33,046 nucleotides of DNA, from the NCBI RefSeq assembly GCF_003334815.1, contig NZ_QOWO01000041.1; one strand, 5' to 3'. Source of the stretch: Escherichia coli (GTDB lineage: Bacteria > Pseudomonadota > Gammaproteobacteria > Enterobacterales > Enterobacteriaceae). This document shows positions 8,591-29,748 of this stretch, piece by piece. The first letter of the stretch is position 1. Each line of letters opens with the position of its first letter. Below the pieces are notes generated by a model. It searched no databases, was not told the DNA's origin, and was given only the letters and a program-made list of their open reading frames with translations. Made by a program: the position numbers and the translations under genes.

Positions 8591-8795
<205 letters not shown>

Positions 8796-14950: not shown

Positions 14951-14990
14951 TACACCGGCGCAGGAGAGACTGCGCCGGGTAAATCAGCGG

Positions 14991-16140: not shown

Positions 16141-16959
16141 ATGACCACACGCGTGATTGCTCTCGACTTAGACGGCACCTTATTGACCCCGAAAAAGACC
16201 CTGCTTCCTTCATCGATAGAAGCCCTGGCCCGCGCTCGCGAAGCAGGCTATCAATTAATCATCGTCACAGGTCGCCATCACGTCGCTATTCATCCTTTTT
16301 ATCAGGCGCTGGCGCTGGATACACCTGCTATTTGCTGTAATGGCACCTATTTGTATGATTATCATGCAAAAACCGTGCTGGAAGCGGACCCAATGCCCGT
16401 TATTAAAGCCCTGCAACTCATTGAGATGCTGAATGAACACCACATTCACGGTCTGATGTATGTCGATGATGCAATGGTCTATGAGCACCCGACCGGGCAT
16501 GTCATTCGCACATCTAACTGGGCGCAAACCCTGCCGCCGGAACAGCGTCCGACTTTCACACAAGTCGCTTCTCTGGCTGAAACGGCGCAACAAGTTAACG
16601 CCGTATGGAAGTTCGCCCTGACGCACGATGACCTGCCGCAATTGCAGCATTTTGGTAAGCATGTCGAACATGAACTGGGACTGGAGTGTGAATGGTCCTG
16701 GCACGATCAGGTTGATATTGCACGCGGCGGCAACAGCAAAGGTAAACGTTTGACGAAATGGGTTGAGGCGCAAGGTTGGTCGATGGAAAACGTCGTGGCA
16801 TTCGGCGATAACTTTAATGATATCAGTATGCTGGAAGCCGCTGGTACAGGCGTGGCGATGGGCAACGCCGATGACGCGGTAAAAGCGCGCGCCAACATTG
16901 TGATTGGTGATAACACCACCGACAGCATTGCCCAGTTCATTTATAGCCACCTGATTTAA
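16141..16959 (+). CDS. ybhA: YbhA, HAD-superfamily (Cof-type) sugar/pyridoxal phosphate phosphatase (272 aa)
   Basis: ORF 16039-16959 trimmed to ATG 16141 (MTTRVIALDLDGTLL..., HAD motif I DxDGT). Stop abuts the convergent modC stop. Confidence 0.85.
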   Translation: MTTRVIALDLDGTLLTPKKTLLPSSIEALARAREAGYQLIIVTGRHHVAIHPFYQALALDTPAICCNGTYLYDYHAKTVLEADPMPVIKALQLIEMLNEHHIHGLMYVDDAMVYEHPTGHVIRTSNWAQTLPPEQRPTFTQVASLAETAQQVNAVWKFALTHDDLPQLQHFGKHVEHELGLECEWSWHDQVDIARGGNSKGKRLTKWVEAQGWSMENVVAFGDNFNDISMLEAAGTGVAMGNADDAVKARANIVIGDNTTDSIAQFIYSHLI

Positions 16960-18018
16960 TCAGGCGGTTATCGACACACTTTTAATTTGCGCGTACAGCC
17001 ACAGGCCAGGTTTGATCGCCAGTTCATCCCTGGCCCACGGGCTGATACGCGCCCACAGCGTTTTACCGCCGACTTCCAGTTCCACTTCCACCTGGCCGTT
17101 GTCGTCATAACTATTAACAACTTTTGCCCGCAATACGTTACGAATGCTGGTTTGCTGCGGCGGTTGTAAAACCAGAGAAACATCGGAAGCCTGAATGCGG
17201 ATACGTAGCGCAGCTTGCAGCGGTTCGTCCAGCTTATTGACCCACAAATGCTGATCGCCCAGCGCCAGCGCGGTCATCGCGTAATGCGGATGATGCTCAA
17301 GCACCGTCACTTTCAGAATGCTACTTTGTTGCTCTTTCGGCAGCCACGGATTCATCACGCTACTGCCCCACACTTCCTCCAGCGCGCCAAAGGCTTTCAC
17401 CTGACCGTTTTCCAGTACCATCACTCTGTCTGCCAGATGGAGGATCTCATCCAGCGAATGGCTGACATACAACATCGGAATGTTGATTTCCCGTGTCAGC
17501 CGTTGCAGATAAGGCAACAGTTCGCGTTTACGCGGAATATCCAGTGACGCCAGCGGTTCATCCAGCAACAGCAATTCCGGTGCTGTCAGCAAAGCCCGAC
17601 CAATCGCCACGCGCTGTTTTTCGCCTCCGGACAGGCTGCCTGGTAAACGGTCAAGCAACGGTTCAATGCCTAAAAGCGCCACCAGCTTATCGAACTGATC
17701 GACCATACTTTTCGACATGCCGTAGCGCAGATTGCCACGCACTTTGTAATGCGGGAACAGCCGCGCATCCTGAAAAACATAGCCAACGCGACGCTTTTCC
17801 GGCGTCAGGCAGATACCTTTTTCGGCATCATTTAGTACCCGCCCATTGAGGACAATCCGCCCTTTTTGCGGGCGCGTCAGTCCACTGATGGCGTTAATCA
17901 GCGAAGTTTTTCCGGCACCGGAGACGCCAAAGATAGCAGTGATGCCATTGGCGGGCAGCGTTTCATTAATAGTCAGGCAATGGTTGCCCAACGTCTGGGA
18001 AAAATTCAGTTCCAGCAT
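16960..18018 (-). CDS. modC: Molybdate ABC transporter ATP-binding protein ModC (352 aa)
   Basis: Walker [13 protein letters not shown] signature LSGGEKQRV, Walker B LLLDEP; C-terminal TOBE-type domain. Confidence 0.93.
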
Positions 18019-27729: not shown

Positions 27730-27750
27730 ACGTCATTCGTTTAAAATGAG

Positions 27751-27781
27751 AAAGCCGACTGCAAGTGAGTCGGCTTTTTTG
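27751..27781 (+). terminator. Rho-independent terminator of gpmA
   Basis: AAAGCCGACT...AGTCGGC stem followed by TTTTTTG. Confidence 0.7.
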
Positions 27782-27802
27782 TTGCTAACAATGGAGCACA
27801 TT

Positions 27803-29656: not shown

Positions 29657-29680
29657 GGGAGAGCGGAGTCTCTCCCTTTT
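29657..29680 (+). terminator. Rho-independent terminator of ybgS
   Basis: GGGAGAG-loop-CTCTCCC followed by TTTT. Confidence 0.6.
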
Positions 29681-29748
29681 AATTTTTCACTTCTAAAAGC
29701 AGTATGATGTCATAAAGTTAAGTGAGAATAATTAAGGGATGACTCGTC

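Follow-up and report, generated by a model that had tools for sequence, protein, structure and literature searches.

Strong RNA hairpins lie 3 to 30 nt past the stop codons at two convergent Escherichia coli junctions that have no spacer, ybhA/modC and zitB/pnuC, and these hairpins fall within the coding sequence (CDS) of the partner gene. At zitB/pnuC, comparison across species indicates that two hairpins are embedded in, and probably co-evolving with, the neighbor's coding sequence. Their most likely role, by analogy with Rho-dependent transcripts, is to mark and protect mRNA 3' ends. An earlier note on this DNA had reported abutting stops at ybhA/modC and overlapping stops at zitB/pnuC, both of which are confirmed by the open reading frame (ORF) list, the sequence, and the RefSeq annotation, and had concluded that such junctions leave no room for terminators. 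The conclusion is misleading as worded: a consensus scan indeed finds no canonical hairpin-plus-U-tract terminator at either junction, but the embedded hairpins at zitB/pnuC appear to be conserved beyond coding need. The useful correction is that a lack of intergenic DNA is not a lack of 3'-end signals.

Two convergent junctions and their age

The window, meaning the whole 33-kb stretch of DNA that was analyzed (33,046 nt), matches E. coli K-12 MG1655 at 100% identity; NC_000913.3 coordinates are obtained by subtracting the window coordinate from 814572. The RefSeq CDS ends agree with the ORF list, and the four genes are as follows.

16141 to 16959, plus strand: ybhA CDS, pyridoxal phosphate/fructose-1,6-bisphosphate phosphatase; stop TAA at 16957-16959 (RefSeq, ORF list, and ortholog alignment).
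16960 to 18018, minus strand: modC CDS, molybdate ABC transporter ATPase, last gene of modABC; stop TGA at 16960-16962 (tca on the plus strand).
29749 to 30690, plus strand: zitB CDS, CDF zinc exporter; stop TAA at 30688-30690.
30687 to 31406, minus strand: pnuC CDS, nicotinamide riboside transporter, downstream of nadA; stop TAA at 30687-30689 (tta on the plus strand).

From the ORF list and the sequence, the gap between ybhA and modC is 0, with no bases in common, and zitB and pnuC overlap by 4 nt, the TTAA at 30687-30690. The CDS ends are genuine. Orthologs from other genera reach the last residue of ModC (352/352), YbhA (272/272), and PnuC (238-239/239), and across about 12 genera the ortholog alignments stop no more than one residue short of these three ends. 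The tail of ZitB varies among orthologs, yet it is always His-rich with the same end point.

With opposite strands, a tail-to-tail arrangement, an allowed tetramer, and real ends, zitB/pnuC belongs to the class of 4-nt stop/stop convergent overlaps, while ybhA/modC, with its gap of 0, is adjacent to this class and not a member of it. Among convergent overlaps, the 4-nt stop/stop type (CTAA, TTAA, CTAG, or TTAG) is the most frequent, and a 2007 study put the number of convergent overlaps in E. coli at 58 (PMC2174442). In the ortholog comparison, 17 additional species from about 12 genera share the ybhA/modC gap of 0, and 20 additional species have the zitB/pnuC overlap of -4 (also 0, -7, and +2), where the shared tetramer is TTAA, CTAG, or TTAG. 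Both junctions are ordinary, evolutionarily old, and spacer-less, and their geometry is not statistically odd. Such compact convergent ends are a known arrangement that has already been catalogued, both pairs being in a published list of excludons. We rejected the fixed gap length as a proof of function: where no spacer exists, almost all indels harm one of the CDSs, and the geometry is therefore expected to freeze. Small shifts are seen at zitB/pnuC (0, -7, and +2). Most simply, the compact geometry is a frozen by-product of spacer loss that persists without need of a function. As first stated, the observation matters little, abutting or overlapping convergent stops being a textbook feature of compact bacterial genomes.

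Published transcription and 3' ends

Because there is no spacer, the 3' untranslated end of each mRNA lies antisense inside the partner gene. The earlier note had predicted that transcripts reach into the partner gene and overlap in antisense, and this is borne out by work already published for both pairs. Specifically, pnuC-zitB and modC-ybhA are named among the 165 convergent excludons of MG1655 (Table 1 of the "excludome" study, NAR 2025, PMC12288877), which are pairs whose transcription overlapped in 50% or more of 58 RNA-seq samples. In that study, the predicted terminators of 146 of the 165 pairs overlapped the neighbor's transcription unit, p19 capture of double-stranded RNA was uninformative for convergent pairs, and, in single cells, excludon pairs as a class were co-expressed less often than other neighboring pairs. 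A published Term-seq data set adds one 3' end.

16191 (798381 on the plus strand of NC_000913.3), minus strand (the modC strand): RNA 3' end (Adams et al. 2021, PMC7815308, Supplementary file 1).

This 3' end lies after GGUCUUUUUC, antisense to about codon 17 of ybhA and 769 nt past the modC stop, and it suggests that at least some RNA of the modC strand escapes termination close to the junction. The source of the RNA may be modABC read-through or an internal antisense promoter. In the curated Term-seq and Rho tables of Adams et al. (PMC7815308), none of the four hairpins described below coincides with a listed 3' end, and the TERMITe and SMRT-Cappable-seq supplements have no entries there. 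The ybhA, modC, zitB, and pnuC genes were probably poorly expressed in the media used by Adams et al.

One reading of these data is that both pairs are functional excludons, that is, that they lack termination or 3'-end signals and that long antisense RNA and head-on polymerase traffic make a mutually exclusive switch of each pair. Their presence in the published list, the reduced co-expression of the class in single cells (PMC12288877), the modC-strand 3' end 769 nt into ybhA, and the lack of a canonical intrinsic terminator at either junction all agree with such a switch. However, abutting CDSs enter an overlap-based list almost automatically, which says nothing about the length of the overlap, and the zitB/pnuC stops are directly followed by conserved, selected hairpins. 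Nor do we know of any functional link within either pair, one joining zinc export to nicotinamide riboside uptake and the other molybdate uptake to a pyridoxal phosphate phosphatase. We consider a functional excludon unlikely at these junctions.

Hairpins inside the partner coding sequences

Where the terminators of convergent overlaps lie was already asked in 2007, and for 20% of 116 E. coli genes a predicted terminator fell within the partner (PMC2174442). Our consensus scan for intrinsic terminators found nothing at or just past either junction, and its few hits elsewhere were about as numerous as expected from shuffles; Rfam held no known RNA family at either junction. Folding and a repeat search around the stops identified the following structures.

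30694 to 30728, plus strand: H2a, a 15-bp GC-rich hairpin in zitB-sense RNA; arms 30695-30707 and 30715-30727; no U-tract.
30628 to 30677, minus strand: H2b, a hairpin in pnuC-sense RNA; core GGCCAGAC...GUCUGGCC at 30635-30670; no U-tract.
16989 to 17052, plus strand: H1a, a 64-nt hairpin in ybhA-sense RNA, 30 nt past the ybhA stop, in modC codons about -31 to -10; no U-tract.
16859 to 16934, minus strand: H1b, a branched structure in modC-sense RNA, 25-100 nt past the modC stop, in ybhA codons -34 to -9.
16943 to 16971, not assigned to a strand: an imperfect palindrome centered on the ybhA/modC stops; arms 16943-16956 and 16958-16971.

The GC-rich stem-loop of an intrinsic terminator is present in H2a (-25.3 kcal/mol), H2b (-22.6 kcal/mol), and H1a (-40.4 kcal/mol), with stems that begin 3, 16, and 30 nt after the stops, respectively. 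The run of 7 to 8 U directly after the stem is absent, and the 3' flanks, UGAUCCAC (H2a), CAUGACAA (H2b), and CCACAGCG (H1a), are U-poor.

Within 330 nt on either side of the zitB/pnuC junction, the conserved minima of folding energy (MFE) are deepest at H2a and H2b, with mean z scores of -3.3 and -2.8, respectively. H2a is made of the pnuC codons for N-S-A-R...S-R-A-L-S, has a z score of -4.8 in E. coli, and is within the top 0-5% of local windows in 21 of 21 enterobacterial species. H2b, inside zitB codons about -21 to -5, is kept in about 16 of 21 species although the ZitB tail changes (V-S-G-H, T-A-G-H, H-S-E-H, and Q-P-D-H). Compensatory changes occur at 6 of its 11 pairs, and some of them alter amino acids of the variable ZitB tail. 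For H2b, 87.7% was paired across species versus 78.1% after shuffling, with a covariation score of 0.370 versus 0.202 (0/500 shuffles). For H2a, 83% was paired on the plus strand, with a score of 0.159 versus 0.110 (0/500), and covariation was not significant on the minus strand. Each of the two hairpins is favored in the RNA of the gene that ends just upstream of it, G.U pairs there becoming A.C on the other strand (e.g., -30.1 versus -13.8 in L011); for H2a, this asymmetry is largely due to one outer G.U pair.

We compared the stability of each hairpin with that of synonymous recodings of the same codons, taking the per-species P values as not independent, since the species are related. The median P value for H2a was 0.026, with 12 of 21 species below 0.05, and for H2b it was 0.03 in the pnuC sense (13 of 21 below 0.05) versus 0.085 in the zitB sense. 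Among 116 windows scanned for calibration, H2b was the strongest outlier (15/21), and only four windows had a median P value of about 0.07 or less, namely, H2b, H2a, the more marginal H1a, and one window internal to modC.

Part of this stability could be produced by coding. The hairpins might be by-products of coding in a GC-rich codon context that have no RNA function, at compact junctions where termination is diffuse and Rho dependent. The PnuC tail motif S-A-R-x-x-G-S-R-A-L is conserved, its Ala and Arg codons (GCG and CGC) are self-complementary, and synonymous recodings of H2a still average about -14 kcal/mol versus about -7 kcal/mol for the local background, so the stability of H2a is owed in part to the conserved peptide S-A-R...S-R-A-L. 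The lack of covariation in H1a also points this way. Nevertheless, the observed stability of H2a is below the recoding mean in 21 of 21 species, and both H2a and H2b fall below the 5th percentile in 12 to 15 of 21 species, which is rare in background windows. Moreover, H2b is retained while the ZitB tail varies, its substitutions being compensatory or giving strand-specific G.U pairs, and the hairpins move to the spacer where one exists. An origin from coding only is, in our judgment, improbable, and the sequence comparison supports conservation of the zitB/pnuC hairpins beyond what coding requires.

The movement to the spacer is seen in relatives that have one (Yersinia, Mangrovibacter, Tatumella, Serratia, Pantoea stewartii, and others). 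In these, a strong hairpin lies in the spacer directly after the stop, and the coding-embedded hairpins are weak or absent. Elsewhere in the window, a single hairpin, which lacks a U-tract, occupies the whole 40-nt spacer of ybhD/pgl.

At ybhA/modC, H1a is a candidate 3' structure of the ybhA mRNA, for which the evidence is weaker than at zitB/pnuC. It has a z score of -6.4 (0/200 shuffles), and its median recoding P value on the ybhA-sense strand is 0.02-0.03, with 11 of 19 species below 0.05; the modC-internal calibration window scores equally. The E. coli-type pairing shows no covariation, and RNAalifold does not recover H1a. The hairpin is weak in outlying gap-0 genera, and another local hairpin, CCUGGC...GCCAGG, forms in Pseudocitrobacter, Kluyvera, and isolate RIT691. 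H1b (-35.3 kcal/mol, z score of -2.6) is a weak candidate for a 3' structure of modC-sense RNA, with a median recoding P value of 0.05 on the modC-sense strand (9 of 19 species below 0.05); the cross-species MFE profile dips only slightly there.

We also considered the palindrome across the ybhA/modC stops (fold z scores of -2.3 and -2.9) as a shared bidirectional hairpin and rejected it, as it is specific to E. coli and already weakened in E. albertii. In 16 of 17 other gap-0 species, the 41-nt region folds no better than the local background on either strand, and one Pantoea species reaches 8% on one strand. The palindrome is probably due to chance.

Proposed 3'-end formation and comparison with known systems

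Rho-dependent transcripts carry a stable stem-loop soon after the stop, with no U-tract and with an excess of C over G downstream, sometimes inside the next CDS (Dar and Sorek 2018, PMC6061677). We favor, with moderate confidence, an account in which the same kind of stem-loop, otherwise placed in a spacer, is embedded in the partner CDS. The zitB mRNA would end with H2a in pnuC and the nadA-pnuC mRNA with H2b in zitB; less securely, the ybhA mRNA would end with H1a in modC and the modABC mRNA with H1b in ybhA. Because they lack U-tracts, the hairpins are not self-sufficient intrinsic terminators. RNA polymerase would probably continue into the untranslated, C-over-G antisense region, where Rho, collision with opposing polymerases, or both would stop it. 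Stretches in which C exceeds G by at least 8 per 80 nt start 40 to 170 nt past each stop; such stretches make up 12% of the whole window, and the antisense strand of coding DNA is generally C-rich. Exonucleases acting 3' to 5' would next shorten the RNA as far as the hairpin, and the hairpin would fix and protect the steady-state 3' end. Stable sense and antisense RNA would then overlap over a short stretch only, approximately 100 nt long at zitB/pnuC (30628-30728) and approximately 190 nt long at ybhA/modC (16859-17052).

A broader idea, which we offer tentatively, is that convergent genes without a spacer retain the hairpins of their mRNA 3' ends by encoding them in the C-terminal codons of the partner, with the ZitB and PnuC tails under a dual protein and RNA constraint and with hairpins swapping between CDS and spacer as spacers are lost or gained. 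The signs of such a dual constraint would be compensatory changes that alter the protein and G.U pairs that are specific to one strand, and zitB/pnuC appears to be a small, clean example of it. If true generally for the approximately 58 or more convergent overlaps of E. coli, this would be a rule for genome compaction without loss of 3'-end definition. The embedded hairpins also call for caution in practice, as recoding, deleting, or tagging the C terminus of pnuC, zitB, or modC may alter the 3' end of the neighbor's mRNA.

The known systems nearest to these junctions differ in what they share with them. Overlaps of the 4-nt stop/stop type between convergent prokaryotic genes were reportedly described by Fukuda in 2003 and by Johnson and Chisholm in 2004, and overlapping bidirectional terminators that act with RNA polymerase collision are said to have been described by Ju et al. 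in 2019; convergent excludons with overlapping 3' untranslated regions are a concept of Lasa and Toledo-Arana. The TTAA of zitB/pnuC is one of the four tetramers open to 4-nt overlaps (Lillo and Krakauer 2007, PMC2174442), while the abutting ybhA/modC is a neighboring instance of such compaction. The ExcludonFinder study (PMC12288877) names both pairs as convergent excludons, but the functional claim that defines the class is mutually exclusive expression through interference or RNase III, whereas at both pairs the overlap follows from geometry alone.

The collision-driven terminators of the Ju/Wang/Liu type provide a further possible reading, in which the hairpins are pause elements of Rho-independent bidirectional terminators that pause polymerase from either side until head-on and trailing collisions release it. 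According to the preprint by Wang et al. (bioRxiv 2022, 10.1101/2022.10.23.513370), these elements lie between convergent genes, are unlike intrinsic terminators, and require a stem-loop, all of which is reminiscent of junction hairpins that lack U-tracts and are symmetric around the junction. That element is one shared, overlapping, intergenic structure, and in this model the termination efficiency rises with polymerase traffic (10.1101/2022.10.23.513370), whereas ybhA/modC and zitB/pnuC have separate, strand-biased hairpins embedded in CDSs and the four genes are probably weakly expressed, and we find this reading improbable.

The gpmA/aroG junction in the same window has a canonical bidirectional intrinsic terminator (27745-27783; Term-seq 3' end at NC_000913.3 position 786824), in which one hairpin with an A-tract and a U-tract serves two convergent genes in a 157-nt spacer; ybhA/modC and zitB/pnuC, in contrast, have neither a spacer nor U-tracts. 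The favored account, that of hairpins protecting 3' ends from within the partner gene, finds its counterpart in the protective 3' stem-loops of Rho-dependent transcripts (PMC6061677), which the junction hairpins, as predicted here from sequence, resemble in having a stem-loop soon after the stop and a U-poor flank.

Two convergent junctions without spacer DNA

The window sequence is that of E. coli K-12 MG1655, as the reverse complement of NC_000913.3 (NC coordinate = 814572 minus window coordinate), and a 2.1-kb query around the ybhA/modC junction was 100% identical to K-12 records and was found in 5391 of 5426 complete E. coli genomes. The window contains five convergent junctions that differ in their 3' arrangement, and two of them lack a spacer. 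RefSeq annotation, the ORF list, and the raw sequence agree on the abutment of ybhA and modC and on the overlap of the zitB and pnuC stop codons, exactly as an earlier note had claimed.

ybhA, 16141-16959 (+), phosphatase gene, stop TAA
modC, 16960-18018 (-), last gene of modABC, stop TGA read from 'tca' at 16960-16962, gap to ybhA of 0
zitB, 29749-30690 (+), zinc exporter gene, stop TAA
pnuC, 30687-31406 (-), downstream of nadA, stop TAA read from 'tta', TTAA at 30687-30690 common to zitB
ybhC/ybhJ junction, spacer with a REP element; 8643-8713 (-) matches Rfam naRNA4, a REP-derived nucleoid-associated RNA family (60.7 versus a gathering score of 59.5 bits)
gpmA/aroG junction, spacer with a canonical bidirectional intrinsic terminator at 27745-27783 (A-tract, 16-bp stem, U-tract), on which the published aroG-strand Term-seq 3' end NC 786824 falls
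ybhD/pgl junction, spacer 14951-14990, whose whole 40 nt form one 9-bp GC hairpin (CCGGCGCAG...CUGCGCCGG, z about -3.9 on both strands) with a U-tract on neither side

Orthologues from other genera align up to the last residues, which indicates that the C termini of the junction genes are real.

A convergent arrangement without a spacer is not unusual. Length-4 overlaps are the modal class, the tetramers found in convergent 4-nt overlaps are CTAA, TTAA, CTAG, and TTAG, and 58 convergent overlaps have been counted in E. coli (Lillo and Krakauer, PMC2174442). Both pairs are also named in ExcludonFinder Table 1, a list of 165 convergent pairs that show overlap of their transcription units in at least 50% of the 58 RNA-seq samples of MG1655 (PMC12288877). 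Since abutting coding sequences meet this criterion almost automatically, the listing confirms overlap and not its length or consequence. The earlier inference of antisense overlap was therefore right, and it is, like the arrangement itself, already known and catalogued for both pairs.

To compare the geometry across species, we used GalT, encoded between the two junctions, as an anchor for 80 loci with 10-kb flanks (one genome per species), located the four junction genes by tblastn, and prolonged each match to its stop codon. Another 17 species have a ybhA/modC gap of exactly 0 (E. albertii, three Citrobacter, two Pseudocitrobacter, Kluyvera, Superficieibacter, Escherichia sp. ESNIH1, isolate RIT691, two Enterobacter, a soil MAG, Siccibacter, Cedecea, and two Pantoea). 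Within this set, YbhA identity drops to 62%, and the ybhA stop is TAA or TGA. The two genes are 6 nt apart in Erwinia and separated by 33 to 734 nt in Serratia, Hafnia, Rahnella, P. stewartii, Yersinia, Budvicia, and Acerihabitans. The zitB/pnuC value is -4 in 15 further species, 0 in two, -7 in two, +2 in Erwinia, and +75/76 in Yersinia. The recurrence of the gap of 0 and of the -4 overlap shows that the compaction is old. We do not take conserved geometry as evidence of function, since without a spacer nearly all indels harm a protein and freezing is expected.

In Enterobacter sp. Bisph1 and Phytobacter massiliensis, about 1.2 to 1.3 kb separates the YbhA-like match from modC, which reflects either an insertion at the junction or a paralogous match (61% identity in P. 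massiliensis); the zitB/pnuC overlap is intact in both. In Acerihabitans and Mangrovibacter, pnuC is missing downstream of zitB, and the convergent neighbour of zitB ends in a NadA-like C terminus, which suggests lineage-specific loss or gain of pnuC between nadA and zitB.

Hairpins just past the stops, within the partner genes

We found no canonical hairpin-plus-U-tract terminator at or just beyond the ybhA/modC or zitB/pnuC junction, and neither junction matched an Rfam family. The ybhA/modC stops lie at the centre of a palindrome (16943-16971), which is E. coli-specific and was rejected as chance; in 16 of the 17 other gap-0 species, the folding of the same 41 nt does not surpass that of adjacent coding windows, whichever strand is taken. 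To say that such stops leave no room for terminators is misleading, however, since hairpin signals are embedded in the partner coding sequence just beyond them. Lillo and Krakauer had already raised this point, noting that terminators of convergently overlapping genes must fall in the partner's coding sequence and predicting one in 23 of 116 genes (PMC2174442).

A 41-nt folding-energy profile across species showed conserved minima just beyond the stops, within the partner gene, at both junctions. The two deepest within 330 nt on either side of the zitB/pnuC junction lie at +21 (mean z -3.3, 21 of 21 species) and -39 (mean z -2.8, pnuC-sense), and the deepest at ybhA/modC is centred at +60 (mean z about -1.8). 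The corresponding hairpins are as follows.

H2a, 30694-30728, zitB-sense RNA, 15-bp stem beginning 3 nt past the zitB stop, -25.3 kcal/mol, z -4.8
H2b, arms 30628-30642 and 30663-30677, pnuC-sense RNA, core GGCCAGAC...GUCUGGCC, beginning 16 nt past the pnuC stop within the variable His-rich ZitB tail
H1a, 16989-17052, ybhA-sense RNA, 64-nt hairpin beginning 30 nt past the ybhA stop, -40.4 kcal/mol and z -6.4 in E. coli
H1b, 16859-16934, modC-sense RNA, weaker than H1a, z -2.6

H2a is composed of pnuC codons for N-S-A-R...S-R-A-L-S, and the PnuC tail peptide alone accounts for about -14 kcal/mol, so that the structure is in part a by-product of the protein sequence. In each of the 21 species whose gap is at most 2 nt, H2a falls within the top 0 to 5% of local windows. 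When the PnuC tail of each species was synonymously recoded with that species' codon usage, H2a was more stable than the recoding mean in 21 of 21 species (median percentile 0.026; 12 below 0.05). Its stem pairs third-codon with third-codon positions, several of which covary (aaC:ctG to aaT:ctA; gcG:cgC to gcC:cgG). In the zitB-sense orientation, 83.2% of cells are paired and the covariation score is 0.159 versus 0.110 for shuffled alignments (reached in 0 of 500); in the pnuC-sense orientation of the same region, 74.6% are paired and no value exceeds the shuffles.

For H2b, the median recoding p is 0.03 pnuC-sense (13 of 21 species below 0.05) versus 0.085 zitB-sense, with large strand differences in several genera (-30.1 versus -13.8 kcal/mol in Enterobacter sp. 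Bisph1); mismatches in the zitB sense are G.U pairs on the pnuC-sense strand. RNAalifold recovered the stem, with compensatory changes in 6 of 11 pairs. The paired fraction is 87.7% versus 78.1% shuffled, doubly changed cells number 18 versus 5.8, and the covariation score is 0.370 versus 0.202 (0 of 500 shuffles), with slid controls at or below 0.165. The right-arm residues vary by genus (V-S-G-H, T-A-G-H, H-S-E-H, Q-P-D-H), while complementarity to the G-P-D/E arm is kept. By these comparative sequence measures, H2a and H2b are conserved and selected.

The recoding signal of H1a is likewise stranded, with a median p of 0.02 to 0.03 ybhA-sense (11 of 19 species below 0.05) versus 0.12 to 0.15 modC-sense. 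No covariation was seen for pairing of the E. coli type; a different local hairpin takes its place in Pseudocitrobacter, Kluyvera, and isolate RIT691, and H1a is weak in outlying gap-0 genera. The median recoding p of H1b is 0.05.

As a calibration, we applied the recoding test to 116 windows of sixteen codons each, taken from the final 130 codons of the four junction genes. Four had a median p of at most about 0.07 with at least nine species below 0.05, namely, those at H2b (15 of 21), H2a (9 of 21), H1a (9 of 19), and a sense-strand window inside modC (10 of 19); background windows had median p values of 0.1 to 0.8 with 0 to 7 species below 0.05. All three hairpin signals fall no more than about 95 nt beyond a partner's stop, and each favours the read-through strand in the targeted tests. 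The modC-internal window, 17263-17310 (-), codons -116 to -101, has a modC-sense structure (median p 0.033) that could be internal mRNA structure or chance.

Species with a spacer

Where pnuC does not overlap zitB, as in Yersinia (75-nt spacer), Mangrovibacter and Acerihabitans (convergent neighbour nadA), and Tatumella, the ZitB tail lacks a strong antisense hairpin. Its best 41-nt window there is -7 to -15 kcal/mol; for about 16 of the 21 overlapping species, the value is roughly -19 to -30. The H1a-equivalent segment averages -13.2 kcal/mol in species with a ybhA/modC spacer versus -19.5. Yersinia, Mangrovibacter, and Tatumella instead carry a strong spacer hairpin 5 to 9 nt past the zitB stop (-17 to -26 kcal/mol); the best one downstream of zitB in Acerihabitans is about 108 nt beyond the stop. 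Species with a ybhA/modC spacer also have spacer hairpins, such as GCCCUCCC...GGGAGGGC in Serratia. All of these differences between species with and without a spacer are confounded with phylogeny.

RNA 3' ends and the probable role of the hairpins

The curated Term-seq 3' ends and Rho-termination regions of Adams et al. 2021 (PMC7815308) include none at either junction, and expression of the four genes in LB and M63 is probably low. The same data place a modC-strand 3' end at NC 798381 (+), window 16191 (-), which is 769 nt past the modC stop, antisense to the ybhA start, and follows a weak stem and GGUCUUUUUC; this RNA may arise from modABC read-through or from an antisense promoter within ybhA. 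Strong Term-seq 3' ends (NC 784890/784891) mark the ybgS intrinsic terminator at 29657-29682 (+), GGGAGAG...CUCUCCC plus UUUUAAUUUU. Only 67 nt separate it from the zitB start, so that zitB must have its promoter within that stretch or depend on terminator read-through. At the window edge, 32767-33046 (-) holds tRNA genes and an RtT-family match, in the lysine/valine tRNA cluster upstream of nadA.

An mRNA with its 3' end on the stop codon or only a few nucleotides away would be a poor termination substrate and a tmRNA target. Some 3' extension into the partner is thus practically obligatory, for the gap-0 pair as well. At these old junctions, which lack U-tract terminators and carry hairpins just past the stops in partner coding sequence, the hairpins probably act as protective stem-loops that define 3' ends. 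Should they fix the steady-state ends, the transcripts would share a stable complementary stretch of about 100 nt for zitB/pnuC and of about 190 nt for ybhA/modC. An alternative is the collision-driven bidirectional terminator model, which offers another way of halting polymerase at embedded hairpins.

The end-defining role would match the Rho-dependent transcripts of Dar and Sorek, whose stem-loops are stable and poor in U, precede C-over-G sequence, and in some cases lie within the coding region of the next gene; stretches with C above G begin 40 to 170 nt beyond each stop here, which is weak evidence. The hairpin shared by ybhD and pgl resembles the zitB/pnuC hairpins in having no U-tract. 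The embedded, co-evolving hairpins of zitB/pnuC are a tidy example of a known principle and not a new kind of element.
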